A stretch of 62,968 bases of DNA, filler included, from Folioceros fuciformis (taxonomy: Eukaryota), in NCBI GenBank assembly GCA_049999805.1. It is 9 parts of 9 records of this genome, joined end to end, with 100 filler letters (N's around TTAATTAATTAA, not from the genome) between each part and the next. Parts side by side here need not be neighbours in the genome. Positions count along the whole stretch, not along the records: positions 7,433 to 23,361 come from JBNGIO010001973.1; 8 more parts are not named here. The stretch is one strand, 5' to 3'. Numbering within the stretch: the stretch's first letter is position 1; each line of letters opens with the position of its first letter. Positions 1 through 37,042 of the stretch are shown piece by piece. A program made the translations under genes and the position numbers. Below the pieces are notes generated by a model. That model was not told where the DNA came from, did no database searches, and saw only the letters and a list, made by a program, of their open reading frames with translations.

Positions 1-257
1 AGGCTCTATCAGCCTCAGGGCGCACTCCCTGACCAGCTGGGGTGCTGCATGGTTCCACTTCTGGGTCATAAAGCTCAGACCCCGCTCTGCCACCAACTTC
101 CCTGCCCTGACCCTCCAGTGCTCCATATTGGGCCACAAGAGTAGGTCAATTCGGGGGACAGGAGGCCCCCCCTCCTGTCCAGAGGCTGCTGCTCCAAGGA
201 TCAGTTCAGGCCGCGCCCTCATCTTGCCTGTCCTCCTCCTCTCACACCTTGCGCCAT
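1..257 (-). pseudogene. Degenerate accessory ORF downstream of the family-A PPT (apparently inside the LTR)
   Basis: Translates ..LWPNMEHWRVRAGKLVAERGLSFMTQKWNHAAPQLVRECA.., matching 43930-44454. Both copies share the GAGAGATGGCGC start context. TATA-like TATAAAAACCCT at ~361-372. Confidence 0.7.
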
Positions 258-2322
258 CTCTCCCATCGTCCTAGCGCTTTCCCCTCTTTCAGCCGCTTCA
301 CGCTTCAAGTTACTCCCGCTTCCCGTACTTTCGGATGCTGGACAGAGCTCCCCTTTCTCTAGGGTTTTTATACCCTGCCTACTTTCTCCCCTTACGCTCG
401 TCGGGCTACCTCCAGTCGTCCCTCCGGTAACGGTTGCCGGCTACCATTGCCCTGTCACCTCGGGCCCTTACTTTTGCCTACCTTAATGTTCTCAATGACC
501 CGAGGGCCAAGGAGGCACTCGCTGCTTCCCCCTCCTTGTCCCGATCTCCCGTACTCCCCAAACCCCGAAGCCCAAGGTGGACTTTGGGGGTAAACACCCC
601 AATCTTACTCGCTTACTAAGCCGATTCGCCTATCCCTTCACAAAAGAATCACAACCTGCTTATTCCGTCAAGGACCGAACTATATCCTCCAGTTCAGAAG
701 ACCCCGCCACTCTGATCAGCAAGGACGGAGGAACCCCCACAAAATTCGGGTAAGGATGTTACAGGCGGCTGGGCCGAGGAGTCAGCACTGCGCGTGGAGG
801 AAGAACGACAACCCGAGAAGGGGACGGGCCAGAAGGCAGAAGAAGGAGGAAAGGATTTGCGGCTGGATGAAATGAGGAAATTGGGATTTCCTCCGGATGT
901 GCGTTAGGAGGTGGCTGATATGATCCAAGAGGAGTTGAATCAATCACTGGAGGATGCGGCAACGAAAGGGGGGCCAATGGGGGTTCCGAAAGTTTTTTTT
1001 CGTTCACATACTCCCCTTCTCATTTGTTGGCGCCCTCGCCAACCTACACATAATACCTCTTCACCCGCCACCCATTCACCCTGGTTGGCAGCAGCTGTCC
1101 GTCCATCTGTTGCAGCTGAATGGAGCCATTGTCAAAAACCTCAGCGACCCGGTATGGTCCCATCCACCTCAGATGCAATTTCCCTGGAAAGTGCATATAC
1201 CTGCTGTCATACAGCAGAGCCAGATCACCAGGTACTACCCATTCCTGTTGCTTCATCCTGCGGTCATGCCATTCCTTCCTCCTAGTCTGCATCTCCTGCA
1301 TCGTTTCCAACGCTTTTTCCATGTCTTCAGTGTGTTTAATGAAACTAACGAGGAGCTCCAGCTGACTTTCCTCCACTGTTATCCGCTTCCTGTTTTGAAC
1401 ACGTAGGGTTAACACTTCAAACTCCACAGGCATCACTGGGTGATGGCCATAAGTAAGATAGTAAGGAGTTTTCTGGGTGGTGACCCTCTCTGCAATCCGG
1501 TATGCCCACAGCGCCGAATGGAGCTTGAGATCCCAATCATAAGAATACTCCACTGTCACCTTGTTCAGTATTCGACACAAAAGACCATTCGCTTTCTCTG
1601 TCAGCCCATTCGCCTTCAGATTGTAGAGGGTAGTTTGCCTGTGCTGCACATTGAAATGGTCCGCCAGATGGGTGCTTACCTCATTGACAAAGTGGGTACC
1701 CCGGTCACTTACTAGCTCCAGCGGACAGCCATACCGAGCAATCACTTGCTCGAACAGAAATTTCGCGACCACATGCGCAGTGTCCACTTGCAGGGGCTGC
1801 GCTTCCACCATCCTTGTGCAGTAATCCGTCGCAACTAGAATGTATTGATTCTGCCGAACTCAAGTCTTTGGTTGGATCGGTCCCACAAAATCGATTCCCC
1901 ACTTCTCGAAGGGTGCCAAAGCCAGAATCGGCACCAACGGCCATTGCGTCGACGGGGTAGGCTTCCCCACCCGCTGGCAGGCATCACATTTTTTCACGTA
2001 CTGTGCTGTATCTTTGTACATCGTGGGCCACCAGTATCCTGCCTCCAGGATCTTCCTGCAAGTAATATGTGCTGCGAAATGGCCACCTGCCTCCCCGTCG
2101 TGCAGGCCCCTCAGCACTTGCTCAATCCTCTCTCTTGTTATCCATAGACGTTGGCGTCCGTCTGGCCCGATTTGATACAGCTCCCCTCCGCTGCGAGTGA
2201 AAGGTCGGGTGTAGTGCACCCAAGCTTGCCCCCGCTGCCTCGATACATCGCTAGGAATGACCCCCGACTCTAGGAATTCCGCTACTTCCAAATAGGTGGG
2301 CCGAACAATCTTGATCCTCCCC
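1..2322 (-). mobile_element. Non-chromovirus Ty3/Gypsy 3' part (family A): integrase, PPT and 3' LTR running off the window
   Basis: Integrase HHCC zinc finger (H..GGH...CDAC), core WGIDFVGP / LVSDRGTHF and GPY/F tail WMGPY..RVNGWRVKRYY in ORFs 1860-2399 and 1044-1811, with a frameshift between them. PPT GAGAAGGGGAGTA at 1009-1021; LTR starts TGTGAACG at 1008. Confidence 0.9.
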
Positions 2323-2323
2323 T

Positions 2324-2537
2324 TAATAGGAATATAAGATGCTGAATAGCAGTCAAGACAACTTGACATCTTGTGCGCGTAGTGAGAGATAGATATCAAA
2401 AGAATCCAGCATGATAATTAATGAGAGAATAATTAATAATGAAAAGGTAAAGGTATTTATAGCCAAGCCCTAAACTAATTAGGTCATCTATTCATGCATA
2501 CTCCTAGGTTACCCATAACAACGGGTTATTTTCAACA
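2324..2537 (-). repeat. 3' LTR (~214 bp) of the Copia element inserted into the Gypsy pol
   Basis: On the minus strand PPT-like TATGTGGGAG is followed by TGTTGAAAA. The segment is AT-rich and ends TATTA (decayed TATCA) where Gypsy pol resumes. Confidence 0.7.
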
Positions 2538-2747
2538 CTCCCACATAACCTAGGCAGTGTGCATCTTCCTTTAGATGAGAGTCGAGCGCCGCCCTCTCCC
2601 GTTATCGCACACGCTCGTTAGCCAGAGCTCGCACTGTTACGCGCTGGGAGCTGAAGCGACGACTGTGACACCATGTCGCAGCTACTTGCGATTGTGGCCA
2701 CCATCCTCGCCTCCTTCTGTTTGCTCATACTGTGGTAGCAGCAGAAA

Positions 2748-3183
2748 ATGACTACAAGAAGCGGTGCGCGCTACAGGCCTGAAAGGTATGGAGAGGGTGC
2801 TGTCCCAAGGAAGAAACGTGCGGTGAAGAAACAGGAAGAGGTTGCAGCTGGTGCTAGGAACACAAGGGCTTTGCAGTGGAGACCTTCCAATCTACAGCAC
2901 TACATCAGTAGCTGCGGCTTGGAAGTGGAGGTGGCAGCCAACGTGACTGTGCGCAAGGTGCAGGAAACAGGCAGGGCAAATTCAGCTGTGAAGGAAAAAA
3001 GAGATAGTGGCTGAACTCCTGGACCCGCCTAACCCAGACCCCCTCAGAGGGATGAAGGTTAGATGGCGCGAGGCAATCAGGACCCCACTGCCTGCTGATG
3101 AAAACGTGAAGGAAGAAACAGAAGTAGAAAGGATTGATCCAGCAGACGGGAGACAGCTCCCACAGAAGACAACAAACCCCTAA
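2748..3183 (+). CDS. Putative ~145-aa antisense ORF in the Copia 3' region (one frameshift in an A6 run)
   Basis: MTTRSGARY.. ORF 2748-3014. Removing one A at 2995-3000 extends it, stop-free, through ..EIVAELLDPPNPD..WREAIRTPLP.. to TAA at 3181-3183. Confidence 0.4.
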
Positions 3184-6100
3184 AGTGCCATGATTAGGTA
3201 AACACTGTGATGATTCATCCATGGCTGTGATGGTGATAGACAGAAGCAAGTCTGACCAACTAATCTGTATGTATGTGCTGCAGAACACATGGCAGGACTG
3301 ATGAGAGGACAACTTTAGAGCTGGGTCTCACAGCTAAAATTATGATAAACTATAAAACCAGGGGACTGAGGTCCCCATCCCCCCAATTCCAAACAGGTCA
3401 GACTGTCACCACTGTTTACCTTACTCCTGTTCTTGGTAACAAATAGCTGAAGTCTCGTATACCCAGGGATTCCATGTGATGCGAATGCTTGAGCTTGGGT
3501 AGTGACTTTGTCATGATATCTGCAGTATTCTCCGTTGTTGGTATATATTTTACTTGTATGACTCCTCGTGCCACTGCATCTCTAACATAATGATGTTTGA
3601 TCTCGATGTGTTTTGTACGAGCATGAAAACGCGGGTTGGCAACAAGGGCAATCGCAGAGTTGTTATCACAATACACAGTAGTAGGACTGGCTTGCTCATG
3701 ATGAAGTTCCTTGAGGTATGATCTTGCCCATTTAGCCTCCTTAGCAGAGTCTGTAAGTGATACATATTCTGCTTCGGTTGAGGATAAAGCAATAGCTGAT
3801 TGCTTCTTGCAGGACCAGGTAACGGCCCCACCAACTAGCAGAAAACAATATGTGGACAAACTCTTACGGGAGTTGGGATCAGAAGCCCAATCTGCATCTG
3901 TGTAAGCTTCAAGTGTTAGACCAGAAGGAAGACCAGCTTGGTAGAAGATACCGTAATTCATGGTCCCCTTCAGGTAACGATAGATTCTTTTCACTGCTGC
4001 CCAATGAATTCGTCCCGGCTTCTCCAGAAATTGGGATACACAGAAGACTGAGAATGCGATATCAGGTCTTGTCCAATTTGATATGAAGATGAGGCAACCG
4101 ACAGCGTGCCTATAGGGAATCTTCTCCATATCAGCAATCTCCTCTGGAGTGGAAGCACATTGATCAGATGTTAACTTAACACCGACTGAACCAGGGGTGG
4201 ACACAGGCCTGGCTTCATCAAGCCGAAAACGCTTCAAAATCTCAGATAAGTATTTCTTTTGATGAATGACTATGAGGCCTTTTTCTCTGTTCCTTAATAC
4301 TTGAACACCCAGGCAGAATTTAAGTGCTCCCACATCTTTCATTTCAAATTTATCCCTTAAAAGGTCTTTAACCTTATTCAAGATATGGGTATCTGTACAG
4401 GCAAAGATGCAGTCGTCTACATACACTGCAAGAATGCAAAAGGCTGAGCTGTCGACAAGATAATATACAGATGAGTCTGCTGAACTTTGTGTAAAACCTA
4501 GAGCTTTGAGTTCAGCGTCAAGTTTCTCATTCCATAGCATGGCACTTTGCTTAAGCCCATACAGGGCTTTGAGTAGCCTCAGTACCTTGTTAGGAAAACG
4601 TTTATCCACATAACCCTGGGGCTGCTCCATGTAAATTTCCTCCTTAATCTCCCCATGTAGAAAAGCAGTACACACATCCATTTGATGCAATTCCAAGTTC
4701 AGTTCCGCAGATATGGCTAACAGCATCCTAATAGATTGTGCTCGTACGACAGGGGAAAAAGTTTCCTGGTAATCCAGGCCAGGAACTTGAGAAAATCCAC
4801 GAGCGCAGAGCTTGGCCTTATAACGGGCAATCTCACCTTCAGCATTAAGTTTGGTCTTGAAGACCCATTTACAAGTGACAGCCTTCCTACCAGGTGGCAA
4901 GTCTGTAAGTTCCCATGTTTTATTTTTAGACTGGTATTCCTCCTCTACTGCAGCTTGCCACTTATCAGCATCAGGACCAGCATAGGCTTCATCCATGGAA
5001 ACAGGATCCAGCAAAATGGGAGTGCTGCCAGGAATGGCAGCATGAGTAGAAGGCCGGAAGTCATAAGAAGCATAAGGAGGTTCTGACCATTGGGCACGAG
5101 GTAGGCGGGCACGAGGAGGATTGCGTCTAGGAACGACAACAGCAGGAAGATCCTCCTCTTGATCTGGTGTGTCTGGATCAGGGTAGGGTAGATCAGCAGG
5201 TTCAGGGAAAGGGTCTGCGACAGGGTCCTGAACTGCATCAGGAAGGTCAGGAACATGCACATCCAGAGGATCAACAGGGGGAACTTGCTGTGGAGCTGAT
5301 ACAGGAATTGGAGGATTAGCAGCAGGGGAATTAGCTGCTGCTAGAGGTAGAACATGTTGTTGAGGGGCAGGAATACCCTGGGGAAACTGAGCAGGTTGAA
5401 TGTCATAACCTGTCAGGTCAACAAAAGTATCCTCATCATCGGATGAGTCAGAAGCGGACTCTGCATGAACTCCTGCGTTGGCTGGAGACCCAGGGGCAAC
5501 AATCTCCTTAAAAACAACACTCCGGGCTAAGACTGGGGCGTAGGTGAGGGGGTCTATCAATTTGTATGCTTTGGCCTCTTCGCTATAGCCTATAAAAAGC
5601 AAGGCTTTGGACCTATCATCAAGTTTCTGACGTTTGGCTTGTGGGATGTAGGCGTAAGCGGGAGACCCAAAAACTCTGAGGTGCATGATACTAGGTTTGC
5701 GACCCCAAAACAACTCAAAAGGAGTCTTGCCTTGTAAAGAAGTTGTGATCAGCCGATTAAGGATATAAGTCGAAGTGACCACTGCCTCAGCCCAATACTC
5801 AGCAGGTAAATTAGACCAACTCAACATACTTCTTGTCATCCCCATAAGTGTCTGATTTTTACGCTCCGCCACGCCGCTCTGCTGTGGTGTGTAAGGTACA
5901 GTGAGTTGGCGTATGATACCGCGTTCCTGAAGATATTGGTCAAAGAGACCGTTGCAAAATTCTGTTCCATTGTCTGAACGGATACACTTGAGAAAATTTC
6001 CAAACTGCCTCTATGCCATGGGTAACCACTCCTGAAAACAGCCAAAAGTATCACTTTTCTTGGCCATTGGGTAGGTCCAGGTGTAACGACTATAGTCGTC

Positions 6101-7332
6101 AGTGATGGTAAGATAATATGAAGAACCACCTATGGACTTAGCCTGCAGCTTTCCAGAGATATCAGTATGAACCAGATCCAGGACTGCAGAGGTGCAAAAA
6201 CCAGAGTGTGGAAAAGGCTTCTCCCTTTGCTTGGCGAGAAGGCAAGCTTCGCATACAGGTAACTCCTTAAAACAGGATGGCAATGGTTCTTCATAACAGC
6301 TTTCAGTTGACATTTTAATTAACATATTTTTGTTGACATGTCCGAGTCTGGCATGCCACAATCTGGCTTGTTCTGATGCAGGCAAATAGGCTGGTGTGGT
6401 TGCAGTAGCCACAGGGCTGGTGGTAGGAACCTCACATAGAACGTCCAGTCGATAAAGCTCTGAGTCCGGGACTCCGCGGCCAATACATTGTGCAGTAGAA
6501 GCACGTCTGAATATCTCACAAGTGTTGCCAAAGAATCGAAGTTCAAGATTGAAATGCATGGCGAGAAGTCTCACAGAAAGTAAATTCTTTGCCATTCCAG
6601 GTACGTACAGAATTCCTGGAACATTCAGGACTGAATTATCAGACATTACAAAAGGCATGTACCGTAGCCTTTGATGGGTAGGCTGGTTGACTTCTGTTCG
6701 TCCCCAAGTAGTACACACTGTGTCGAATGTGAAATGTCCTTGTAGCTGGTGAATAAGCTTTTGTCTTTGCAGATGTGTGCAGTCGCGCCAGAGTCCAAAA
6801 AACCAGCTGCCAGGATCACTTGAGGAAGAGGAAAGGCAGATGGTGTAAATCTTGACCACAGCTTTACCTCCTTCAGGCGAAGATCTTTCCTTGGCAACAG
6901 AATTAACTTCTGGCTTGGGACGACGAGGCTCGCCAGCCTTCTTACGGCGGCAGTCTCTCTCCCAATGTCCCGGTGTATTGCACCAATTGCAGCTACCAGG
7001 CTTCTTAGTATTTGAGGAAGATCCAGCAGCGGAGGTTTGGCTGATGTGTCGACCTCTACCGCCTCAGCCTCTCCCCCTCCCAAAACCTCCACGCTGGGTG
7101 GAGGTGAAGAGGACCCTGTCTGTCCGTATCTTGCTAGAACCACCTTGAGTATTTCGAAGGCGGCTCTGTTCCTCCTGAAAAAGGGCTGCAATAACTTGCT
7201 CCAATGTGATGCCTGCCGGTTGGCCCGCTGTGACGTTCTGACCAGCAACAGCTAAAGGCCCATTCTGAAGTGAAACGAATGTTTGGTATGATGCAGGCAA
7301 AGTGAGAAGAAATCGCGCGACGGCGTCCTCCT

Positions 7333-7432
7333 NNNNNNNNNNNNNNNNNNNNNNNNNNNNNNNNNNNNNNNNNNNNTTAATTAATTAANNNNNNNNNNNN
7401 NNNNNNNNNNNNNNNNNNNNNNNNNNNNNNNN
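7333..7432. other. Artificial contig spacer
   Basis: N44-TTAATTAATTAA-N44, with stops in all frames. Confidence 0.98.
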
Positions 7433-8313
7433 GCCGCGTCCTCCAATAGCCCATGTCAAGTGTGCAGCTGGATGAGGGAGGGGGGGGGGGGGGGTGTTCC
7501 GGGTCTTCTGTTCTGTAGATTACAACAATCAGGCCGTCTGTTCAGGCCTTCCTGTTGTATGCAGCCTGTGAGCACAACGCACAGCATATAATCAGACTAT
7601 TGACGAAAATTTCCATCCTCGCTGAATGCTGAACCAAGAGGTCCGAGGTGGTCTTCCTCTCTTTGGCTTGCTCCAGGCTATTACGATTTTGATGCCTTCA
7701 CAGCTGGGTAGCCCCCTGGGTTCCGGACAACGGCATCCAGCTCGTCTGATAGATCGACCCACATAGGAGATCATGGTTACAAATACGGTGGAAGGCTTTT
7801 ATCAATAACGACAGCCGACAGCAACTTACCAAAGATCATGTTTGCAGGACGCGTGAAGAAGGGTGTGGCCAGCCTGATTCACACCAACCCCAGTTCCAGG
7901 CAGCTGTCATCACTGCGAGGAGCAGCACAACGCCGAACATCTGCTCTCGGCTCTGGTGAGCAGTTGCGTGCCGGCATGCTTGGCGTCTAGTCCTTCGTGG
8001 AATCTCACTTCCAGCTGTCTTGCAGTGGAGCCGATTGCAAGGCAGGCATTGTGGGACAAGGATCTGACAGTGTCCCAGAAGTGGTGGGACAAGAAGGTGA
8101 GGTTTTGGGAAACTTGAAAACGTTGTGAATTTGCAGTCCATTTGCTGCCATGGCCGGCAGCAGGTCTTGGTGGAACTCTCAAATCGTTTGGGTCTGCATG
8201 GCAGAGGAGGTACCTGGAGGAGGTGGAACTACATGGGAAGCTAGGACCCGCAGCACAGACTGGTGGTGGGTGCACAACATCCGACCAGATAGCATGGGAC
8301 AGTAGAGCTGACT

Positions 8314-10830
8314 GTGAGAGGTCCGAACTGTGCTCCGCAATTGCACCTCGATCTGTCTTTAGAGTTGGATTATCACTCGATTGAGCCGTTCTGGGAATGC
8401 AGGAGTTTTGAAGTGAGAACGTGGGAGAGGCTTTGCCAACATGGGCAGCTGGGGGAGGCCGTCGAGGCCTTGGACCTTCTGGTGCAGGAGAGGTCGTACG
8501 TCCCTCCAGCACCTTTCTACCATGTTCTCAAGAAGTGTATTGCACAGAAAGATGTCGTTGTGGGCAGGCGTGCTCATGCCCTTGCTCTCAAGAGTGGTCA
8601 CGAGTTCGACACATTTCTGGCCAACCACATCATCCGCATGTATGCTTCTCAAGGCAGGTTGCAGGAAGCAGTTCAGGTCTTTACCAAGTTGTCTGCACCA
8701 GACTGCTTTGTGTGGGCATCCATCATTTTGGCACATGCTGAATACGGACAACCTACCCAGGCTATCAGATTCTACGAACAGATGCGTTTGTCCAGGGTGA
8801 AAGCAGACAACTACGTATTCGTGGCAGTCCTTAAAGCCTGTGGAGCTGCCGCAGATCTGGCATGTGGCAAGCAGGTGCATGCTGCTGTTTTGGAGAGTAG
8901 GGTTGAGCCCAATATTTTCGTCGGCAATGCCTTGTTGGACATGTATGCAAAGTGTGGGAGTTTGCAAGACGCACGACTGGTGTTTGATGGTCTGTCGACC
9001 AAAGATGTGGTGTCATGGACTTCCATGATTGCAGGGTATGCTCAGCATGGGCGTGGTCAAGAAGCCCTTACTCTTTATGCCAATATGCAGCAGGAGGGAG
9101 CAGTGGTGCCCAATGATGTCACTTTTGTCTGCCTTCTGAAAGCGTGTGCCTCGGTTGGAGCATTGCATGATGGCAAGGAGCTTCACCGTCAAATACAGCA
9201 AAGGGGATTTGCGACTGATGTGGCCGTAAGCAACTGCTTGGTGGACATGTATGCCAAATGTGGGAGCATAGGGGATGCTCGCAAGGTATTTGACAGCATG
9301 CCCAAGAGGGATTTTCTCAGCTGGAATTCTATGATTGCAGGGTATGTTCAGCATGGGCTAGGCCGAGAAGCACTGGCGCTGTATGGCTGCATGCAGCAAG
9401 CCCTTGCTGATAACGTCACGTTTGTTTGCTTGCTGAAGTCTTGTGCGATTGTTAGAGATTTGCGGGCAGGCAGAGAGCTTCATGGCCAGATTCAAGAAAG
9501 GGGTTTGGAAGCTGATACGCTCATTGGCAACAGCCTGGTGGACATGTATGCGAAATGTGGGAGTTTAGAGGATGCTCGGAGATTGTTCGACAGGCTGCCA
9601 ATACGAAACGTCGTGACATGGAATGCCATGATCACAGGCTATGCCCAGCAAGGGGTTGGTGAGGAAGCTTTGTTGCTTTATGCAAGTATGCAACAGGAGG
9701 CAATGACTGCCGCCAGTAATGTAACCTTCGTTTCCCTTCTGAAAGCCTGTGCTAGCACGGGTGCTTTGAATCAAGGGAAGCAGCTGCACTTGGACATCCG
9801 GGAACGAGGCCTGGAATTGGATGTCGTTGTTGGTAGCAGCCTTGTTGATATGTATGGAAAATGCGGGAGTGTGGCAGAGGCTCGCAAAGTGTTTGACAGG
9901 CTGCCAACCAAGAACGTGGTGACCTGGAATGCGCTGCTGAACGGGTACAGCCAGCACAACCACAGCCACATGGCAATGCTGTGTTTCAAAGAGATGCAAC
10001 GGTATGGTGTTGAACCTGATGAAACCACTTTCATCTGCCTGCTAGCAGCATGCAGCCACCAGGGCATGGTGAAGGAGGGACGGCAGTTTTTTGACAGTAT
10101 GGCGGAAGACTATGGCCTTGCACCCACCATTCATCACTACAATTGTATGGTCGACCTCATGGCCAGGTCAGGCCACCTGGATGAGGCAGAAAGGTTTCTG
10201 CTAACCATGCCGTTGGAGCAGGATGCCGTGGGATGGACATCCTTGCTGACCGCCTGCAAGGGCCACGGAGATGTAGAGCGTGGAAGGCGGTGCTTTGATC
10301 AGCTCATTCAGCTGGAACCGCAGAATGCAGCTGGGTACATGCTTCTAGCCAACACCTACGCGGAAGCTGGTAGGTGGAGTGATGTGGATATGATAGAACG
10401 CCTGAGAGTGTCTGCAGGCGCTTGCAAAAAACCTGCCATTGCCTGGATTGAGGTGAGGAGCAAAGTTCATTCTTTCGTAGTGGGGGAAGAAAGGGGTGAC
10501 CTTTACGGCAAGCTCAAGAGTGTGAACCTGCAGTTTGTACAGGAGGGAGGTCACGTACCCCACACGGAGTTGGTCCTGAGGCCAGTGTCAGAGACTGAGA
10601 AGCAAGATGCCTTGTGTGGCCATGCTGAGAAGCTGGCATTGGCCTATGGACTCCTTAACACTCCCGATGGCTCACCCTTGGTGGTCACCAAGAATTTACG
10701 CATGTGCAATGACTGCCACAGCGGCACCAAGATTATGTCCAGGATTGAGAAGCGTGAGATTATTGTCAGAGATGCACACCATGTGCACCACTTTGTGAAT
10801 GGTTTCTGCTCCTGTGGAGATGGACCCTGA
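8314..10830 (+). CDS. PLS-class PPR protein with E1/E2 and a complete DYW:KP-type deaminase domain (candidate U-to-C RNA editing factor); start codon uncertain
   Basis: About 17 P/L/S motifs ending P2-L2-S2-E1-E2. KKPAIAWIE replaces PGxSWIE, HAEKLA replaces HSEKLA, zinc ligands MCNDCH, C-terminus CSCGDGP. First in-frame ATG is at 8638 and there is an in-frame TAG at 8290. Confidence 0.92.
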   Translation: MRGPNCAPQLHLDLSLELDYHSIEPFWECRSFEVRTWERLCQHGQLGEAVEALDLLVQERSYVPPAPFYHVLKKCIAQKDVVVGRRAHALALKSGHEFDTFLANHIIRMYASQGRLQEAVQVFTKLSAPDCFVWASIILAHAEYGQPTQAIRFYEQMRLSRVKADNYVFVAVLKACGAAADLACGKQVHAAVLESRVEPNIFVGNALLDMYAKCGSLQDARLVFDGLSTKDVVSWTSMIAGYAQHGRGQEALTLYANMQQEGAVVPNDVTFVCLLKACASVGALHDGKELHRQIQQRGFATDVAVSNCLVDMYAKCGSIGDARKVFDSMPKRDFLSWNSMIAGYVQHGLGREALALYGCMQQALADNVTFVCLLKSCAIVRDLRAGRELHGQIQERGLEADTLIGNSLVDMYAKCGSLEDARRLFDRLPIRNVVTWNAMITGYAQQGVGEEALLLYASMQQEAMTAASNVTFVSLLKACASTGALNQGKQLHLDIRERGLELDVVVGSSLVDMYGKCGSVAEARKVFDRLPTKNVVTWNALLNGYSQHNHSHMAMLCFKEMQRYGVEPDETTFICLLAACSHQGMVKEGRQFFDSMAEDYGLAPTIHHYNCMVDLMARSGHLDEAERFLLTMPLEQDAVGWTSLLTACKGHGDVERGRRCFDQLIQLEPQNAAGYMLLANTYAEAGRWSDVDMIERLRVSAGACKKPAIAWIEVRSKVHSFVVGEERGDLYGKLKSVNLQFVQEGGHVPHTELVLRPVSETEKQDALCGHAEKLALAYGLLNTPDGSPLVVTKNLRMCNDCHSGTKIMSRIEKREIIVRDAHHVHHFVNGFCSCGDGP

Positions 10831-11156
10831 TTCTCACCTGGACAGAAGTTAGGCGAGTTGTACAATCCGTGGCCATGGACGTGTCCCCTGGTGCTCCGCT
10901 GGGGAGGTGGAGCACTGGTTGTTCTTGAATTAGGAACAAGATAATGATGGGATATAGCATTTGCCCGGGGAGTTCATTCATTGCCAACTTAGATGATAAA
11001 AATGTTGGACATGTCGATGACGGTGCCATGCTACCCAGTGTATATTCTTGACACAACAGTGTGGTTGTAGGAGACTCTAAACAGGCAGAAGAGTGTACCT
11101 GGAAGGAGATTGGCATGTTGCATCATCGCTTCCACTATCTCGGGAATTCCTTGGGA

Positions 11157-14100
11157 TCATTGTGACAGTGGGGCATAACCTGCCTCCTTGAGCTCTGAAG
11201 TCACGATGTCAAGCAGTTTGTAAAGTGCAACTGCTTGAGGATGACTGTGGTCTCCAACCACAAATGTGTGCAGCTCCTGGTCATGCTCGATGCAGCTCTG
11301 GCCAGGCTTTTTCCAGGCACCTGCGATTAGCCTCAAATCATCTATCTCCCGTGCGCAGTCGTGCATACTTGCCTCAGCATAAATAGTTGACATGAGCACA
11401 TAAGCAGCTGTATGCTTCGGATCTAAGCTGACGGCACAATGGAACGCCGTCTCCCCGAGTAGCACGTTGCCATGCGTTCTGCAGGCACCCAGCAAGCACA
11501 ACCAGACGGGCAGGTTTGGGGGCATTGGCATGTGTGAAAGATAGCCCTCTGCCTTGCTGAAGAGTCCTGCACGGCCAACAAGATCGATCATGCAAGCATA
11601 ATGCTCCAGCTCCGGATGGATGCCATGATCCCTGAACATACTGTCGAAGTAGTATAATCCATCGTCCACCATCCCAGCATGGCTGCAAGCTGACAGGAGT
11701 GCCAAAAAGGTGACCCGATCTGGTTTGACACCTGCCATGCACATGTTCTCGTAACATTTTACACTCATGGCGCAATCTCCTAACCGTGCATACCCAGCTA
11801 ACAGTGCAGTCCAGGACACCACATTAGGTCGAGCCAGAGACTGAAAAACGGACTGTGCGTCCACCATGCTCCCACATTTCCCGTATACATCGATCAGGCT
11901 GGTTGCCACTGAAAAGCTGGAGTTCCATCCATTCTCAACAACGCATTGGTGGATTTCTGCACACACTTCCAAGGCTCCTGTGCTGCTGCATGCCTCTAGT
12001 ACAGCAACAAACGTGGCCTCGTTTGAAGTCACACCTTCGGCTTGCATATGGGAATACAGTTGCAAGGCCTTGTGACCCTGGTCCTCCTGAGCATAGGCTG
12101 CAATCATGGCATTCCATGACACGACGTCACGCTGAGTCAAGGCGTCAAACACCTGCTCAGCGTCCTGAATACTCCCGCACTTAGCATACATACTTACCAA
12201 CGTATTGGCTACAAAAGCATCAGAAAGAAAACCACCAATCACAGCTCGGGCATGTACTTGCTTTCCCTTGCGAAGGGACTGAACCTTTACATTCCCCCCA
12301 TACACGAGCGTGTTCTCCTCCTCTCCTGCGAGGCTGCCACAGGCCTGCAGAGCACTTACAAAAGTCCGAGCCATTGGTTTGACACCTGCCTTTTGCATTT
12401 GCTCGTATATCTGCAAGGCGTTTTCTCCGTCACCCTGTTGAGCATAGGCTGCAAGCATGGCATTCCAGGAAACTACATTGCGGTCAGCAAGCTCCTCAAA
12501 GACGTGCCGTGCTTCCCTAACGTTCCCGCATTTTGCATACATACTGACCAAAGTATTCTGAACGAAGCCATGAGATACACAACCATTCACGGATGCTCGA
12601 GCATGTATATGCCTGCCCCTTTGCAAAGATCGGACCTTCACATTTTGCCCATCCACGGACACACTTTCCTCCTTGTCGGCAAGGTTACCACATGCTTGGA
12701 GGACACTGACAAAAGTGCGTGGATCGGCCTGGATCCCTTCCTCCTCCATTCTCCAAAACAGCTGCAAGGCCTCTTCTCCCTGGTCCTGCTGTGCATATGC
12801 TGCGAGCATCCCATTCCAAGACACTAAATTGCGTTCAGACAGTTGACGGAACACCAGCTGGGCATCCATGATGCTCCCACACTTTGCATACACACTCACC
12901 AGAGTGTTTTGCACATACAAATCCGATGTGAACCCGCTCTCGTTCGCTCCAGCATGCAGTTCCCTCGCCTTTCGCAGCGAGTCCACCCTGAGAAGTTGCC
13001 CATCCACAAGGACACTTTCCTCCTTGTCAGCCAGGCTGCCACATGCTTGGAGGGCGCTAACAAAGGTGCGAGCCACTGGACTAAAGCCTTGCTCTTGCAT
13101 CCGCCAAAAGAGGCGCAAGGCCTTTTCACCTTCGTCCTGCTGAGCATGAGCTGCAATCATGGCGGACCACGAGACCACATTGGGGTGGGACAAACCTTCA
13201 AACACCCGATGTGCATCCCTGATGCTACCGCACTTCGAGTACATGCTGACCAAGGTGTTGCCAACATAGACATCCGTCCCGAACCCAGCCTGCATGGCTT
13301 GGGCATGGACTTCCCTCCCCTTGTGCAGAGAACTCACTTTCACATGTAAGCCATCCACAAGTGTGGTATCCTGCTCCTCCTCAGCTAGGCAGCCACAAGC
13401 TCGGAGGGCGGCGACGAATGTGCGTGCATCAGCCCTGATCCCCTCTTGTTGCAGCAACTGTCGATAAATGTCAAGAGCTTTAGCTCCTTGCTCCTGCTGG
13501 GCATAAGCTGCCAACATGGCGTTCCACGACACCACATTGCGGAAGGGCAAAGCATGGAAGACTTGATGTGCATCCGCAACACTCCCACACTTGGCATACA
13601 TGCTAACCAAGGAGCTGCCCACAAACACATCCGACGCCAAGCCCAGTGCCCGAGCATGAACATGGATTCTCCTTCCCTCCTGCAAATCCTGCAGAATGGT
13701 GCAAGCCTTGAGCAGGGTGACCAACGTGTAGGTATCCGGCTGCACGCCTTCCTGCTGCATCCGGTCATAGCATGCCAGAGCCTGACGAGAATGGCCGGCA
13801 TTGCAGTAGCCGGAGATGATGGACGTCCAAGCATACACACTTCTGTGAGATAAAGTGCGGAAGACCTGTAGGCCATCCGAAAGACCTCCACAGCTGAGCA
13901 ACGTGGTGACTGCAAGGCTGCCCAAATGCGCATCGGAATCTAGCAGCCCGTGGCGTAGCAGGTGCTGGCACACACTCTTGGCCCCTGCCAAAGTCTTGTT
14001 GTGGGTGCAGGCGTGCAGCAGATTCTTATACACATGCGCCGAAGGAACGGTGTGGCAGCGGAGCAAAGCAGCCACCGCCTTGTCCAGAGGGCCGTGCTTG

Positions 14101-14210
14101 CACAAAATCTCTACATCCTCCAGCTCCCCAGAACACGCAGCAGCAGCAACTCCGCATGGGCTGGGAAGGCCCGCCAGGTTCATGCCACCTAGCTGATCCA
14201 GGATCTGCAT
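11157..14210 (-). CDS. PLS-class PPR protein, E+ type (PG box, no catalytic DYW), with four long-insertion L motifs
   Basis: Uninterrupted 1017-aa ORF of PLS triplets, then P2-L2-S2-E1-E2 and WKKPGQSCIE..HTFVVGDHSHPQ..EAGY, then stop. A transit peptide may be encoded upstream (14.4-14.8 kb). Confidence 0.93.
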   Translation of the reverse strand: MQILDQLGGMNLAGLPSPCGVAAAACSGELEDVEILCKHGPLDKAVAALLRCHTVPSAHVYKNLLHACTHNKTLAGAKSVCQHLLRHGLLDSDAHLGSLAVTTLLSCGGLSDGLQVFRTLSHRSVYAWTSIISGYCNAGHSRQALACYDRMQQEGVQPDTYTLVTLLKACTILQDLQEGRRIHVHARALGLASDVFVGSSLVSMYAKCGSVADAHQVFHALPFRNVVSWNAMLAAYAQQEQGAKALDIYRQLLQQEGIRADARTFVAALRACGCLAEEEQDTTLVDGLHVKVSSLHKGREVHAQAMQAGFGTDVYVGNTLVSMYSKCGSIRDAHRVFEGLSHPNVVSWSAMIAAHAQQDEGEKALRLFWRMQEQGFSPVARTFVSALQACGSLADKEESVLVDGQLLRVDSLRKARELHAGANESGFTSDLYVQNTLVSVYAKCGSIMDAQLVFRQLSERNLVSWNGMLAAYAQQDQGEEALQLFWRMEEEGIQADPRTFVSVLQACGNLADKEESVSVDGQNVKVRSLQRGRHIHARASVNGCVSHGFVQNTLVSMYAKCGNVREARHVFEELADRNVVSWNAMLAAYAQQGDGENALQIYEQMQKAGVKPMARTFVSALQACGSLAGEEENTLVYGGNVKVQSLRKGKQVHARAVIGGFLSDAFVANTLVSMYAKCGSIQDAEQVFDALTQRDVVSWNAMIAAYAQEDQGHKALQLYSHMQAEGVTSNEATFVAVLEACSSTGALEVCAEIHQCVVENGWNSSFSVATSLIDVYGKCGSMVDAQSVFQSLARPNVVSWTALLAGYARLGDCAMSVKCYENMCMAGVKPDRVTFLALLSACSHAGMVDDGLYYFDSMFRDHGIHPELEHYACMIDLVGRAGLFSKAEGYLSHMPMPPNLPVWLCLLGACRTHGNVLLGETAFHCAVSLDPKHTAAYVLMSTIYAEASMHDCAREIDDLRLIAGAWKKPGQSCIEHDQELHTFVVGDHSHPQAVALYKLLDIVTSELKEAGYAPLSQ

Positions 14211-15776
14211 CCTTGGACAGAGGAAATTGCCCTAGACCTTTCCGGGGTACCGCTCCACGGTCTCTGCTTGTGCTCATTCCTGTGAAGGTGTGCAAGCGTG
14301 CTTGGGCCCGAGCCTGAACCTGAGCCTATGTGAATCATCAGGGCAAACAGTCTATGTAGACGAACACAAACACAATAAGAGCTTACATGTATCTTGAAAC
14401 TGTCTACCGCACTACCGCACCCGTGAAGGGGACAGCCCAATTCAATTTCTAACCAAGTGCACATGAGGGCTTCGTCGTAATATCTAAGGCCCTCTTCGTG
14501 AGAAAACTGGAAGGTTGCAAATCCAGTGTTGCAAACAGATATCCATCTTGGGAGTGATCCATGGCAGCAGCAGCAGCGCAAGGCCCGCCCTGGGCACTGC
14601 TCCCCGGCAGCCGCTCGTCTATTACAGCGCGATGCAGAGGCACCGTAGGCAGAAGCAGCGCGAGAGCCATGGCACGCAGCTTGAGTGGAGCGTGTGGCAA
14701 GACTATAATGCCGTGCGCCGCTGGAAGCAGGGATTGCGCGAAGCTGCGTCCTGTCACAGTCACAGTCGGGGCTTTGCAGCAAATGACAACGACTTTGCTC
14801 AAATTCTGCCATGCTGAGCATCAAACGAAAAATTGGTGGTAAGATTCTCGCCGGTGTGCCTGTCTTGAGCTCGGTGGGCAGTAACAGCAGCAGGAAGAGC
14901 TGGCAGAGGCAAAGACAAGATGCACATAGCCAGGCGGGCCATTGCAGCGGGGATGGCATTCAGGCATCTGCCAGAAGACTGGCGGTGCCCCACATTCGGA
15001 GCTTCGCAGGGCTACTTCAGGGGCCAGATCGTTGAGGTGGCAAGCTTCGCCCAAAACCAGAGTTACGGCCTGGACGGCAACTGACTAACATCCGCGCAGA
15101 AAAATCTCTTGATCTATGGGACGTTGGCTCTCTTCTTTGCCCTTTTCCTGTCCGACTACTCTCTGCAATGACCATACACAGGATGGTGTCCAGTGCAGTG
15201 CAGTGCAATGCAACAGTTGCTGACATCAGGAACTGCGTAATCCATTGCATGACAACGTACAAAGGTAGGAGGATGTTTCTGAACGTCTGCTTGGTCAGCG
15301 CCTACGCAACATTGAATTACAAGAAGGAGTGCATACGAGTAGCTTAGCTTAGGAAGGATGGAGTCACTTACTTGGTGACAATCCCTGTCTTGTCCACCAC
15401 AACCCTCCTACCCGATTTCCCGGCTTCCCGGCTTGCACGAAATCTCCGCATCCTGATCCTCAGAGATGTGCAGCAGCAGCAGCTCCACATAGACTGGGAA
15501 ACGCCATCGGGTTTAGGCCTCACTTCTCATTCCTGTAGTCGGCGTGGTTTTTTAAAACAAGGTCATGTCAGGCTTTGAATCTAGACAAACACAAACAAAG
15601 AGAGAGGATTGTGTCTTATCCTAGTACATGCGCATTACTGCTTAAGCTGCCCGCTGGTGCTGTATAACGGGCTAAACGGGCGCCCACAGCCTAGTGCTTC
15701 AGACTCGCTCAATCGTTAGCCTGTCGTCGTGCCGAAACCAAAGCAAACGGGAGGAATCCCAGCTGGGATCTGATCC

Positions 15777-17006: not shown

Positions 17007-19616
17007 TTACACACATTCGTTCACGCAAGCGGTCAATTCCTGGACCAACCCGAGCAGCGCCGTCTCGTGCTCATACCTGCCATCTCCTACAAAAAATGTG
17101 TGGACCCTTTGCCCATACTCTGTCCAGCTTTGCCCAGGCTCCTTCCACGCGCTAGCTATGTGCCTCGACCTTTCCACCTCCACAGCACTCTCGTGCGTGC
17201 CCGCATCAGCATAGATGCTCGACATCAGACGATAGGCTGCGCTATGTTTTGGCTCCAACTCCACAGCTCGGTCGAAGGCGTGCTGTGCCAGTGCTATATT
17301 GCCATGCTTGCGGCAGGCACCCAGCAAACACAACCACACGCGCAAAGTAGGTCGCATGGGTCTGAGTACCTCTTCTGCCTTGTCAAACAGACCTGCCCGA
17401 CCCACGAGATAGCACAAGCGTAATGCTCCACCCCTGCCAAAATGCCGTAATCTCTGCTCATGCTCTCAAAGTACCTCAGTCCGTCCCACCATGCCCGCAT
17501 GACTGAAGGGCAGACAGAAGTGCCACAAATGTTTGCCCTGTTGGTTTCACGCCTGCGCTACACATGTCCTCAAAGCATCGCAGTGTCATCACACACCCAT
17601 CTCCTGCTTGGGCATAACCAGCCATCAGCGCATTCCACGTCACTACGCTGGGCCGAGCTAGGGTGTTGAACATGGACTGAGCATCCCCCATGCTTCCACA
17701 TGTGCCGTAAGCATGGATGAGACTGGTCGCCACGCGAATGCTGGACTCGTCCATCCCAGCTTCCACTATGTCTCTGTGTATGAGTTTGCACATGCCCAAG
17801 GCTCCTGTACTACCACAAGCTTCCAACACGGCAACAAATGTAGCCTCATGTGCCTCTACACCTTGCACTTTCATTTCACCATACAGTTGCAAAGCCTGCT
17901 CCCGTTGCTCCTGCTCCACATAGGCTGCAATCATGGAGGTCCACGCAACAACATCGCGCTGGGACAGCCTGTCGAACACCTCTTCTGCATCCTTGATGCT
18001 ACCGCACTTGGCATACATTCGCACTAGACCGCTGCTGACAAACAGGTCTGCTTCCAAGCCCCATCTAATTGCTCCTGCATGCATCTCCCTACCCCTCCGC
18101 AGTGACTCCAATTTTACACTTCGCCCAGCCACTACTACGCTTTGTTCCTTCTCTGCGAGCCTGGCACAGGCTTGGAGCGTGGCCACCAGTGTCCGCGAAT
18201 TCGGTCTGACGCCTTCTTCTGCATTTGCTGATACATATGCAAAGCTTTATGCTCGTGCTCGTGCTTGTCCAGTTGCTGAGCATAACCTGCAAGCAATGCA
18301 TTCCACGATACTGCACTCCGCCTGGGCAACCCATGGAACACATGTTGCGCATTGGCACACTTTGCATATATGCTAACCAACGTGTTCCCGACGAAAAGGA
18401 TGGAATCGAATCCCCTTCCTGCAGCTCCAGCATGGATGCCCTTCCCAGTACGCAGCGAATTCACCTTCACAGCTTGCTCGTCCACACATGCAGCCTCTTC
18501 AGCTTCCCCAATGCTGCCACAAGCTTGGAGAGCACTGACAAAGGTCCGTGCATCCGGCTCCACCCCTTCTTCTTGCATCTGCTTAAACATGTGCAATGCC
18601 TTTTCTCCCAGGTCATGCTCTGCATAGGCTGCAATCAGGGCATTCCAAGACACCAAGTCCCGTCTGGACAGCCTCTGGAAAGAGATTTCTGCATCCTTGA
18701 TGCTCCCACATTTTGAATACATCTTGACCAAAGCGCTGCCCACAAACACGTCGGCTTCGAACCCCAGCAATGTAGCGTCAGCATGCACTTTTTTGCCAAG
18801 GCGCAGGGGGTGAAGTTTGACAAACCGACGATGGACAAGTGCCCTTCTTACCTCCTTTTCCGCCAGGGTGTCACAAGCTTGTATCACAGTGACGAAGGTG
18901 ACTGCGTTTGGCTGCACCCCCTCCTCTTGCATCTCCTCATACAGCTCCAAGGCGAGCTCCGGATCCCACCGCTCCCTCCCGACGTATGCTGCCAGCATCG
19001 CATTCCAAGACAGCGCAGTGCGCTGAGGCAAGCCATCGAAAACCTGCTGTGCCTTGTGGATGCTCCCACACTTTGCATACATGTGAACCAATGTGTTGCC
19101 TACAAACACATCCGAAGCAAGGCCGTGGGCCACAGCGTCAGCATGCCTCCGCTTTCCAGTTTCCAGGTCTCGCACCTGGCTGCAAGCATTCAGCAAGCCG
19201 ACAAAAGTGTAGGTGTCAGGCTGGACACCCTCCTTCCGCATCTGCGCATAGCACGAGAGAGCCTGATGAAATTGTCCCACTCTGATGTGCCCAGAGATGG
19301 CTGCCGTCCAACAGAAAGCGCTTCTGTGCTTAAGTGTCCAGAACAATTGGTGCCCATCAGCAAGGGCTCCACAGTGGATGAGAGTTGTAACCACAAGGCT
19401 CCCCAGCAATCTGTGGGATTCGAATCCATGTTTGGCCAAACGAGTGTGCACTCTCTTGGCCTCAGCCAGGGCCCTCTTCTTCGTCCAAGCTCGCAGCAGC
19501 GCCTTGTACACGGGGACAGAAGGCACAGGTGCCTGCTGCTCCTCGCGGAAAAGAAGAAGCAATGCTTCATGGAGGCGGCCATACTTGCAAAGCACCTGTA
19601 TTAATCGTCCAGACAT
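17007..19616 (-). pseudogene. Frameshifted PLS-E+ PPR, paralogue type of 11157-14210
   Basis: Successive frames 18135-19616, 17476-18186, 17294-17500 and 17007-17417. Same long L insertions (LAEKE..V.GR.VKL); ends WKEPGQSWTE..HTFFVGD. Confidence 0.88.
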
Positions 19617-19880
19617 TGGCGGCTACCAACTTCCAGCAACTCCAAAACATCATGGGATTGTGGTGGAGCAAGAACGCAACGCATTCGTGCTGAAAAGAGA
19701 GGGAAAGTGGACAAGCTTTCTGGCATGGTGGTCAATAGCGCTGTAACCTTGCATTTGTTTATCTGAGAGTGATAAATTATCGTATATGATTATTTTTTAT
19801 TATTGAAAAAGAGATCGAAAGTTCCAAGCGACCCAGGCCGAGCAAGGCCAAAAGGTATTAGCCCATTCGACGTTATTCTT

Positions 19881-23712: not shown

Positions 23713-25915
23713 TCTAGATGTCCTATATGTACATGGGTTTGACTAAAAACCTTGTATCTGTGCGGAAAATTGACGAGTCTGGGTGTTTCATTTGCTTCGG
23801 AGGCGGCAGATGCATTGTGGAATCACCCAAGGGTGCTCTGCTGGCAACAGGCCACCTACAGGCAGATGATCTATATCACCTGGATCTTCAACCAGGTTTA
23901 GCAAGCGCGTTGAGTACCTCACAACATTATGCACAGCCATCACAAACCTACCTCTGGTGCCTCCGCCTAAGTCATGTGAATTTCAGGAAGCTTCTACAAA
24001 TGCAGAGAGAGAAGCTTATCGAAGGACTCAGCCTGGATGTTGTCCAAGACTTTGGCGCGTGTGAAGCTTGTGTCATGGGGAAGCACAAGAAGGCAGCTTT
24101 CCCCGCGGATCCTACCACAAGGGCCACCAAACCACTCGAGTTAGTTCATACTGATGTGTGTGGCCCTCTCCCTTGCTCACTTGGAGGCAAGGAGTATTTC
24201 CTTACCTTCATCGACGTCTTCACTCGGTTTTGCATGGTGTATTTCTTACTTCGCAAGTCCGACACATTCTCTTGTTTTGTGGAGTTTCTTCGATGGGCAA
24301 AACTGTAGATTGGGCACAAGCTGAAAACCTTGCGATCAGATAATGGCAGGGAGTATCTATCCAAGGAATTCAAGGCATTCTGCAAATCCAATGGGATCTC
24401 TTGTCAGCTTACTACTCCGTACACCCCTCAACAGAACGGAATAGCTAAACTTGGGAACTCGAGACTTCTGCCTTCAGCATGCTGCATTATGCAAAGTTGC
24501 CCAAAAGTTACTGGGCGGAGGCTGTGGGTTACGTTACTTACATTCAAAATCGTATCCCACACAAGGCAGTGAAGGGTGCCACTCTGTACGAGCTATGGAT
24601 GGGAAAGAAGCCAACAATAGCTCATCTTCGTGTCTTTGGCTCTATGGCGTATGCACAAGTGTCCAAGGACGTCCGAAGAAAGTTTGAGCTGAAGTCTCGA
24701 CCTTGCATCTTTCTGGGGCTTACAAACGACATTAAACGTTACAAGCTGATTAACAAGCAGACTCGTCAGATCATGCATTCTCGTGATGTAGTCTTTGTTG
24801 AAGGAGTCGAAGCTTTGCAAACAGTGGGAGCCAGTGGGAGCACAAACCTGTCTTTTTTAGACAGCGACAGTGAGCAAGAGGACTTCCTGGTTGGAGACAT
24901 ATCAATTCCACTGCAGCCACCTCACATACCTGCACAGGTGGCACCAAATGCATAGGTTACAGTGCCTCCACAAGCACCACTGAGGACTCAGCTACCTCAT
25001 GTGCAGTCACCTAGCATGCACACACCAGCTAGGACCCCTAGACGGGCAGTTAGCAACAGGGATATTAGTGGCTCACCTCGGGTCACGTTCGACTTGGATT
25101 TCGAAGATGCAGTGTACACGCCTGCATCTGAAACCGTGCAGTCGAGGAGGAAACCAAAGCACGGGCATTTGGCACCTAGGCGCTCAGCTCGGACACATCA
25201 TCCACCAGATTTTTATGTACCAGAAGACAGCAGACATCATGAGTCACATATGACCTACTACTTAGCTGCAAATACAAGTCTGTATGAGCCATCCACTTAT
25301 GAGGAGGCTTTAAGTTGTCCAGATGCTACACAGTGGCAGCAAGCTATCAATTCTGAGCTGGCATCCTTGTATGAGAACAACACCTGGAAACTTGACAGCC
25401 TGCCTGCAAATAGAAAAGTAGTGGGGTCAAAATGGGTGTTTAAATTGAAGCTCGAGGTGGATGGTACAATAGCAAGGTACAAAGGAAGGGTGGTAGCAAA
25501 GGGGTACTCACAGATACCCGGCATCGACTTTGATGACACTTTTAGCCCTGTAGTAAAACTTACTACACTCAGAATGTTCATTGCCCTTGCAGCAATTAAG
25601 AACCTGGAGTTAGAACAGCTCGATGTCACAACCGCCTTTCTGTATGGCAACCTAGAAGAGGAAATTTTCATGCAAGTTCCTAAAGGAGTCACTGTGCCAG
25701 CAGAACTGCCTCAGCTAGTATGCAGATTACAAAAGACCCTGTACGGGCTCAAGCAAAGCCCTAGGGCTTGGTACTCTCGCATCGACACATACTTGAAGGA
25801 GTTAGGCTTTACCAGCATCAATGCAGACAACAACGTGTATATTAAGCAAGAAGGTGCGAATTTCCTAGCTCTGGCTATCTACGCGGATGATATTATCATA
25901 CTGAGCAGAATGTAA
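23713..25915 (+). mobile_element. Decayed Copia pol fragment (pre-integrase, integrase, RT N-terminal half)
   Basis: LVHTDVCGP, RSDNGREY, WAEAV, KWVFKLK, LYGLKQSPRAW, IYADD; contains stops and frameshifts. Confidence 0.92.
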
Positions 25916-30600: not shown

Positions 30601-31299
30601 TCCTTTCCAAACTTTTGGGTATGAAGACATGTTATGGACTCGTGCCACTCTCTCGCCGCCCATAACTTCTCTTTGTACCCTAGACCCAGATGTCTGTATG
30701 TTTCAGGTGTATCCTATGTTTCAGATGTATACCGTGTTTTCACAGTCCGGAGTACTGCGGCACCATCACCGCCTTTAAGCAGGTGAAGATCCAGCCACGA
30801 GTGTGCGGTCATAAGTGAGGCGAGGTTATTAATACAGAGGCATAAACACAAATATAGAACAAAAATTATTCCAATTAAAACAACCCAACTGAAGAATTAA
30901 GCGCGCTCATTGGAGACTTCATAGGAAAACGGTTTCTTGTCCTGTTTCATGAACGCAGTGACAGAAGAAGAATATCCTGGAAGTACTAGGAAGTGACACG
31001 AAAGGAGAAAAGAAATAGAATAGTGCAGTCTACATTAAGCTCGAGTGGGTCTACAATAGGATTTTCAGCGGGGGCAAAAAGATGAAATGCCAGTTCAGAG
31101 GGTGTGACAGTGTAGACAGTCTGAACCGGTGGACGAATTTTACCCCAAGGATCCGTGCCATTGAAAATGTGGAGTCCCTAATAAAGCTCTACAAAACTGT
31201 GTGGTGTAAATCAAACTCAGGTGTCTACAAGATTGGTTCCGCCACCTGCATTCAACTGGAAAATCTCATCCACATCTTCACTAGGTATCACGGGCCTCA

Positions 31300-36700: not shown

Positions 36701-37042
36701 CCGCACAGGAGAACTAAATGAGGCTCTAGATTTAGTATGGACGATGCCTGTCGTACCTAATATGGCAATTTGGCACACTCTGTTGGGAGCAACTTGGAGG
36801 TAGGACGCCATGCTTTCAATGAAGCGGTAAGGCTAGACAAGAACGATGCTGCAGCATATGTGCTGATGTCGAACATATACACCGATGCTCACATGTGGGA
36901 GGAAGCACAGAAGATGCATGCTAGGAGACTGAAACGCAGGATATCCAAGCAGCCTGGTCAGAGCTGGTGGACAGACATGGATGGATTAGTGCACAGCTTT
37001 TTGGTGGGGATCCCCAGACTGCAGCAAGGCCGAATAAGGTAA
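33765..37042 (+). pseudogene. Multiply frameshifted PLS-E PPR, WW-type, paralogue of 28176-30600
   Basis: Frames 34151, 34749, 35230, 35304 and 36770; partial deletions in P2/L2 and E1; ends KQPGQSWWTD..VHSFLVG. 5' limit approximate. Confidence 0.88.

Follow-up and report, generated by a model that had tools for sequence, protein, structure and literature searches.

The window analysed here is a 62,968-nt stretch of Folioceros fuciformis DNA (assembly GCA_049999805.1), made of nine parts of this genome joined end to end. On its plus strand it carries an intact, expressed, native gene for a pentatricopeptide repeat (PPR) protein that ends in a DYW domain of the rare KP type and is a candidate U-to-C RNA editing factor. 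The coding sequence occupies positions 7838..10830, from an ATG to a TGA at 10828-10830, and comprises 910 codons (2733 nt) in four exons. The three introns are all of the GT..AG type once ambiguous boundary bases are slid (7956-8025, 8097-8204 and 8321-8402). To settle this gene model, public sequencing contigs were aligned to positions 7500-11300. Run X3 derives from the same organism as DNA runs X1 and X2, and run X6 from a related organism; X3, X6 and a further run, X11, are classed as RNA by presumption. The resulting gene layout is as follows.

7500..7837, plus strand: 5′ leader, part of exon 1 (X3 record 17, 0 differing letters over 7500-7954; the contig extends ~11 nt past 7500)
7838..7955, plus strand: exon 1, coding part, with the start codon (first in-frame ATG downstream of the stop ending at 7711) and a presequence-like N-terminus
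7956..8025, plus strand: intron 1, 70 nt, GTGAGC..TTGCAG (absent from X3 record 17 and X6 record 22 but retained in DNA contig X1 record 2)
8026..8096, plus strand: exon 2 (contig alignment, open joined frame)
8097..8204, plus strand: intron 2, 108 nt, GT..AG (contig alignment)
8205..8320, plus strand: exon 3 (contig alignment, open joined frame)
8321..8402, plus strand: intron 3, 82 nt, GT..AG (contig alignment), lying within the interval of the initial annotation
8403..10830, plus strand: exon 4, coding part up to the TGA, with the whole PPR array, E1, E2 and DYW:KP (translation, Pfam, open joined frame)

X3 record 17 (1298 nt, 0 differing letters) aligns to the window in four pieces, 7500-7954, 8025-8094, 8203-8318 and 8401-9046. 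X6 record 22 (3111 nt) is split at the same places, its pieces containing 43, 5, 10 and 45 differing letters, while DNA contig X1 record 2 runs unbroken across 7666-8662. Because the X3 contig joins the four exons and the DNA contig is unspliced, we conclude that the locus is transcribed and spliced, X3 being presumed to be RNA. In four bins over the gene region X3 has depths of 5.21, 4.93, 4.16 and 4.02, each of which is the exon fraction of its bin multiplied by 8.95, an arithmetic that leaves nil coverage for the introns; the depth of X1 is flat at 11.4. The initial annotation had made its proposal depend on transcription of the locus, and the spliced X3 contig bears this out. Of the interval that it gave, 8314..10830, the end is correct; the start falls at the end of exon 3, and the interval includes the intron at 8321-8402.

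The plus-strand frame that ends at TGA 10828-10830 is open from 8293, the preceding codon being a stop, and the earliest in-frame ATG in it is that at 8638. A single-exon gene starting from ATG 8638 was considered and rejected: this methionine is inside an S1 motif, PPR motifs lie upstream of it, and the spliced contig has an upstream start. The spliced frame is bounded upstream by a stop that ends at 7711 and lies in one exon with ATG 7838. At the other end of the gene, X3 record 21 extends from 10710 to beyond 11300, running past this gene into a convergent neighbour; the 326 nt that separate the stop codons of the two genes are spanned by one X3 contig. Among the longest contig pieces listed, those of X6 and X11 end at 10626.

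Exon 4 encodes every recognizable motif of the protein. PPR motif types were assigned by motif length and manual reading, and residues of the terminal domain are numbered from the lysine of its KP box.

8413..10224, plus strand: PLS-type PPR array, 18 motifs of 31-36 amino acids (manual parse; Pfam PPR, PPR_1, PPR_2 and PPR_3; helical-repeat solenoid in the AlphaFold2 model)
10225-10326, plus strand: E1 motif (manual parse; Pfam E_motif over the E1-E2 region)
10327-10428, plus strand: E2 motif (manual parse; Pfam E_motif over the E1-E2 region)
10429..10827, plus strand: DYW:KP domain, 133 amino acids from Lys-Pro to the C-terminus (Pfam, alignment, profiles)
10429..10434, plus strand: Lys1-Pro2 of the KPAIAWIE box (domain numbering)
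10621..10629, plus strand: His65-Ala66-Glu67 (HAE, zinc ligand and catalytic Glu; H and E invariant in a 46-row alignment)
10690..10692, plus strand: Lys88, in TKNLRM (invariant in the 46-row alignment; role taken from the designer KP proteins of PMC11845758)
10705..10716, plus strand: Cys93-x-x-Cys96, the CNDC zinc motif, preceded by Met92 (alignment)
10816..10827, plus strand: C-terminal Gly-Asp-Gly-Pro (translation)

Combining the manual parse of exon 4 with Pfam gives the architecture 5x(P1-L1-S1)-P2-L2-S2-E1-E2-DYW:KP, which is the (P1-L1-S1)n-P2-L2-S2-E1-E2-DYW arrangement described for PLS-class editing factors (PMC9478123, introduction). The Pfam domain matches lie far beyond chance (DYW_deaminase PF14432, E 1.9e-35; E_motif, E 7.1e-16; PPR families, down to 5e-82). 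Modelling of exon 4 with AlphaFold2 on an alignment of 45 relatives gave a mean predicted local distance difference test score (pLDDT) of 91.9. The model's best match among solved structures is a synthetic PPR-DYW/RNA complex, 9kfx_A (E 9.1e-42, template modelling score of 0.75 on the target, 49% identity). A search of the ESM Atlas returned only generic DYW/E-motif clusters, labelled Streptophyta. The first 45 residues of the protein include 6 Arg, 2 Lys, 7 Ser, 6 Ala and 1 acidic residue, and by this composition the N-terminus would fit an organelle presequence.

The translated domain contains the motifs KKPAIAWIEV, CGHAEKLA and MCNDCH and ends in CSCGDGP; its key residues are H65-A66-E67, K88, M92, C93-x-x-C96, K101 and D131-G132-P133. 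All features on which the KP assignment had initially been based (KPAIAWIE in place of the PG box, loss of SHP, HAE followed by KLA, an intact CxxC and the CSCGDGP terminus) were recovered in the translation and alignment. In DYW:KP domains, the middle residue of HxE is Ala, another hydrophobic residue or Cys, in place of Ser. According to section 6 of PMC9478123, such domains are 133 amino acids long and are devoid of the xHP residues of PG domains; the discussion of the same paper adds a Met at position 92, where PG domains have Val95. The domain studied here has K1-P2, a length of 133 amino acids as opposed to 135-138 in most PG-type rows, A66, M92, the HxE and CxxC motifs with K88, and a terminus other than D-Y-W. 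The S/xHP triplet carried by PG rows (for example, in GDKSHPQ) is absent, and alignment with the PG-type structures 9kfx and 7o4e opens a four-residue gap exactly at their SHP. H65, E67, C93, C96 and K88 are invariant columns of the 46-row alignment, every invariant residue of which is retained in the protein.

We then compared the domain with its KP and PG relatives. DYW domains were cut from 253 fetched relatives, 235 of which gave a near-full domain. Sorting by pattern yielded 62 KP-like rows (H[AVC]E, the protein studied here included) and 126 PG-like rows (HSE with D[YF]W), and 48 rows that fit neither pattern were excluded. In a quick tree of the 62 KP-like rows and every eighth PG row (16 of the 126), the two groups separate with a support of 99 in the Shimodaira-Hasegawa-like approximate likelihood ratio test (SH-aLRT), and our domain is located in the KP clade. 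A profile of the 61 other KP rows scores it at 216.0 bits, compared to 160.5 bits for a profile of the 126 PG rows, a difference of 55.5 bits. Since both tree and profiles place the domain away from PG, we conclude from its sequence that it is a KP-type domain. The phylogeny and profile comparison that the initial annotation had proposed, with clustering alongside PG domains as the outcome that would count against it, therefore sides with its call of a native PPR protein with a DYW:KP domain, as do the sequence hallmarks. What it had stated about the family, namely restriction of the KP clade to hornworts, lycophytes and ferns and U-to-C conversion by engineered KP proteins, agrees with PMC9478123 and PMC11845758.

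All solved DYW structures found by a sequence search of the PDB (9kfx/9kfy, 7o4e/7o4f and 7w86) are PG-type. With PG-type C-to-U factors such as OTP86, whose DYW domain is represented by 7o4e/7o4f, and the synthetic protein in 9kfx, our protein has in common the layout, the zinc site formed by HxE and CxxC, the conserved Lys and the fold. It differs from them in having KP instead of PG, no xHP (133 versus 136 amino acids), Ala rather than Ser in HxE and Met rather than Val before CxxC, and in the absence of a DYW terminus.

The place of the protein within the KP family is less clear-cut. Hornwort KP proteins are divided into DRH and GRP subgroups, the source definition of which is said to be that of Gerke et al. 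2020 (New Phytol). The definitions used here are second-hand, from section 6 of PMC9478123, where the two subgroups are named after the last three residues. Our protein ends in D-G-P, sharing with G-R-P the Pro and with D-R-H the Asp. Its closest relatives are 70% identical over the last 206 amino acids and 75-77% over the DYW domain, and the termini of the nearest rows are GDRH, GDHH, GDAH or GGRP. More distant are the lycophyte Diphasiastrum (54%) and ferns (49% or less, with Ceratopteris at 49%). Searches of near-length, shorter and representative proteins returned no orthologue above 77% identity, a value that holds over part of the query. Among 60 KP-like termini tallied in the fetched relatives GDGP does not occur; the closest are GDSP (1 row), GDRP (2), GERP (1) and GGRP (4).

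A subtype tree was calculated from the last 345 amino acids of 45 rows chosen by hand, comprising our protein, 36 hornwort-like KP rows and 8 tracheophyte-like rows. The LG+G4 model was used with a careful search, in which the bootstrap had not settled (correlation 0.916). The protein falls into a 22-row clade (support 97/98) that contains both a GRP clade of 4 rows (100/99) and a DRH clade of 15 rows (94/92). It lies outside both, without a settled position alongside rows ending in GDHH and GDRY, and a quick mixture-model tree agrees. The subgroup profiles score it nearly equally (GRP 238.0 bits, DRH 237.8 bits), whereas true members favour their own profile by ~36-55 bits, these being self-scores rather than leave-one-out values. 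Six alignment columns separate the 4 GRP rows from 13 DRH rows; at one of them (the final Pro) the protein matches GRP, at three it matches DRH and at two neither. Domain position 6, occupied by Cys in DRH rows and by Gly in GRP rows, is Trp in our protein, as it is in PG domains. PG and KP domains share a conserved Asp, that of D-Y-W, with the exception of the GRP subgroup, in which the partner Lys of this Asp (K103 in PG numbering) has given way to Glu (PMC9478123, discussion). Our own alignment equates K103 with the Lys101 column. The protein retains both Asp131 and Lys101, whereas the four GRP rows have Gly131 and Q, T, E and E at the partner column.

Compared with the DRH subgroup, the basis of designer KP1, the protein has the same architecture and KP hallmarks. 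Rows ending in GDRH or GDHH are those to which its identities are highest (70% over the last 206 amino acids, 75-77% over the DYW domain), and it keeps the Asp at -3 and the partner Lys101. It departs from DRH in ending with Pro rather than His, in a Gly for Arg at -2, in Trp6 for Cys6 within the KP box (KPAIAWIE versus KPAKACIE) and in its position outside the 15-row clade. With the GRP subgroup, on which KP2 and KP3 are based, it has in common the terminal Pro, the 133-residue domain, HAE, M92 and K88, and it differs in Asp131 with Lys101, in Trp6 for Gly6 and, again, in lying outside the clade.

The initial annotation took DGP for a variant of the GRP-like terminus, which would make the protein a diverged GRP member with GDGP derived from GGRP. 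We regard this as rather unlikely, although it survives best of the alternatives considered. Besides the common terminal Pro and a GRP profile score no worse than that of DRH, an approximately unbiased (AU) test, applied to the grouping with GRP, does not reject a clade of our protein and the four GRP rows (log-likelihood difference 2.57, p-AU 0.461). The well-supported GRP clade nevertheless forms without it, the separating columns favour DRH over GRP by three to one, and the Asp131/Lys101 pair, lost in GRP rows, is intact. True GRP rows reach 274-285 bits on their own profile (again as self-scores, not leave-one-out), compared to 238 bits for our protein. The reading of DGP as a GRP-like terminus is thus not supported. 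As judged from its sequence, the protein appears neither clearly DRH nor clearly GRP, and the tree leaves its subtype open. A more speculative and improbable option is that it represents a natural intermediate between the two, with a Pro terminus as in GRP and with the ancestral Asp131-Lys101 pair and Trp6 retained. If so, it could reveal which residues turn a KP domain into an active U-to-C editor, or might itself edit in both directions.

As to function, our preferred reading, to which we assign a probability of roughly 0.7, is site-specific U-to-C editing at a single organellar site or a small number of them, as suggested by the behaviour of designer proteins. The basic, Ser/Ala-rich N-terminus would direct the protein to the plastid or the mitochondrion. 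By analogy with the family, the 18 PPR motifs together with E1 and E2 would bind one stretch of RNA, one motif per nucleotide, with S2 at position -4. In the PPR code, the fifth and last residues of a motif specify the base: ND stands for U, NN for C over U, NS for C, and TN or SN for A. Reading the P and S motifs by hand with this code, we arrive at a predicted target with U at -19, U at -16, A at -15, U at -13, U at -12, Y at -10, C at -9, A at -7, U at -6 and U at -4, and perhaps, judging by E1, A at -3. The zinc site (His65, Glu67, Cys93 and Cys96) and Lys88 would then convert the uridine at position 0 to cytidine. For designer KP proteins, U-to-C conversion has been reported to pass through a lysine-RNA crosslinked intermediate; Lys88, which forms a crosslink with the RNA, is essential for the conversion (PMC11845758). 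Designers KP2 and KP3, which are GRP-based, and the fern-based KP6 edit U to C, and changing HAE to HAA or CxxC to AxxA abolishes activity (PMC9478123, section 7). All residues essential in the designers (HAE, CxxC and Lys88) are present in our protein.

Several observations weigh against this reading. The activity of natural KP proteins has so far been undemonstrated according to PMC11845758, and we found no natural KP protein with demonstrated activity in the literature searched. The DRH-based designer KP1 is not among the three active ones in PMC9478123, and by profile our protein stands equally near to DRH and GRP. The designer KP6 also edits C to U (PMC11845758), and the positions that tune KP6 are mixed here: E47, A116 and V119 favour U-to-C, and G64 and V113 favour C-to-U. 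At the level of the gene, an intron-less DNA retrocopy of identical sequence would yield the same X3 contig, X11 record 9 spans 8294-8430 unspliced through intron 3, and the leader contains four upstream ATGs with short open reading frames of 10-46 codons.

The dual activity of KP6 raises the alternative that our protein is, despite its KP signature, a C-to-U editor or a bidirectional one, which we hold to be improbable. Single substitutions flip the direction of KP6, and two of the states that shift it towards C-to-U, G64 and V113, occur here, as do a Trp at domain position 6, found in PG-type domains in place of the DRH Cys or GRP Gly, and the Asp/Lys pair that is usual in PG domains. KP2 and KP3, the designers derived from GRP, are, however, obligate U-to-C editors, and Gly64 is also carried by four natural GRP rows (in CGHAEK). 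A66, M92, K88, the absence of xHP, and E47, A116 and V119 all point to U-to-C, as does the 55.5-bit advantage of the KP profile over PG, and the tuning positions have been tested in KP6 only. Use of these positions as a test of editing direction was considered and rejected, their states being mixed and having been assayed in one designer background only.

That the gene is a young pseudogene among decaying PPR genes, a copy still transcribed but without function, is very improbable: although other PPR frames of the window are broken (28475-30778 by an internal stop, 34136-36803 into three frames), a Copia-type element lies 0.8 kb upstream in the joined stretch (across the filler at 7333-7432, in a different part that need not be a neighbour in the genome) and the protein collections searched yielded no orthologue above 77% identity, its frame is open over 910 codons in four exons with canonical introns, every residue invariant in the 46-row alignment is kept, a related organism's contig (X6 record 22) is spliced at the same sites, and the AlphaFold2 model is confident throughout.

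The surroundings of the gene in the window are rich in PPR sequences and retroelement remains. The convergent neighbour at 11157-14231 (minus strand) encodes a PLS-class PPR protein of 1017 residues; E and E+ motifs are present, and the protein stops shortly after a PG box (KKPGQSCIE), with no deaminase domain. E+-type PPR proteins are an enriched class in hornworts (PMC13386178), which together with the DRH- and GRP-type termini of the nearest relatives makes a hornwort origin likely. Three further PLS-type PPR frames appear broken: that at 28475-30778 (plus strand) is interrupted within an S motif by an in-frame stop, 29651-29653, that at 34136-36803 (plus strand) is split across three frames, and that at 17476-19622 (minus strand) is split across two overlapping frames. 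The region is rich in PPR sequences, and the three probably represent pseudogenes or else errors of assembly.

Copia-type retroelement remains occupy 3416-7063 (minus strand). Positions 3416-6010 contain RVT_2 (E 1.3e-73), a retroviral SH3-like domain and an rve fragment, and 6011-7063 contains gag_pre-integrase and rve, with a stop between the two frames. Further Copia-type fragments (rve, RVT_2) are found at 1044-1859 (minus strand) and 24956-25915 (plus strand). No direct repeats of at least 80 nt that could represent long terminal repeats were detected in 1-9000. The window includes 704 N at eight places, each consisting of two 44-N runs 12 bases apart, such as 7333-7432, ~400 nt before ATG 7838; they are filler between joined parts. 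X6 record 22 has ~1650 nt of extra sequence upstream that does not match the window at 90% likeness. The region upstream of the gene possibly differs between the two organisms, with a retroelement as a possible cause.

In every feature tested, the protein conforms to the plan of its family, which has already been catalogued in hornworts, lycophytes and ferns; nothing sets it apart but the GDGP terminus and a character intermediate between DRH and GRP. The hornwort PPR family is very large, with over 1400 PPR proteins (review PMC10030945), and U-to-C editing has so far been understood only via consensus-designed KP proteins. With its model corrected and backed by transcript data, its active site intact and its PPR array defined, the gene described here is a usable candidate should a native factor be assayed for the first time, and the mixed DRH/GRP character of its product is relevant to the question of why some designer domains work and others do not.

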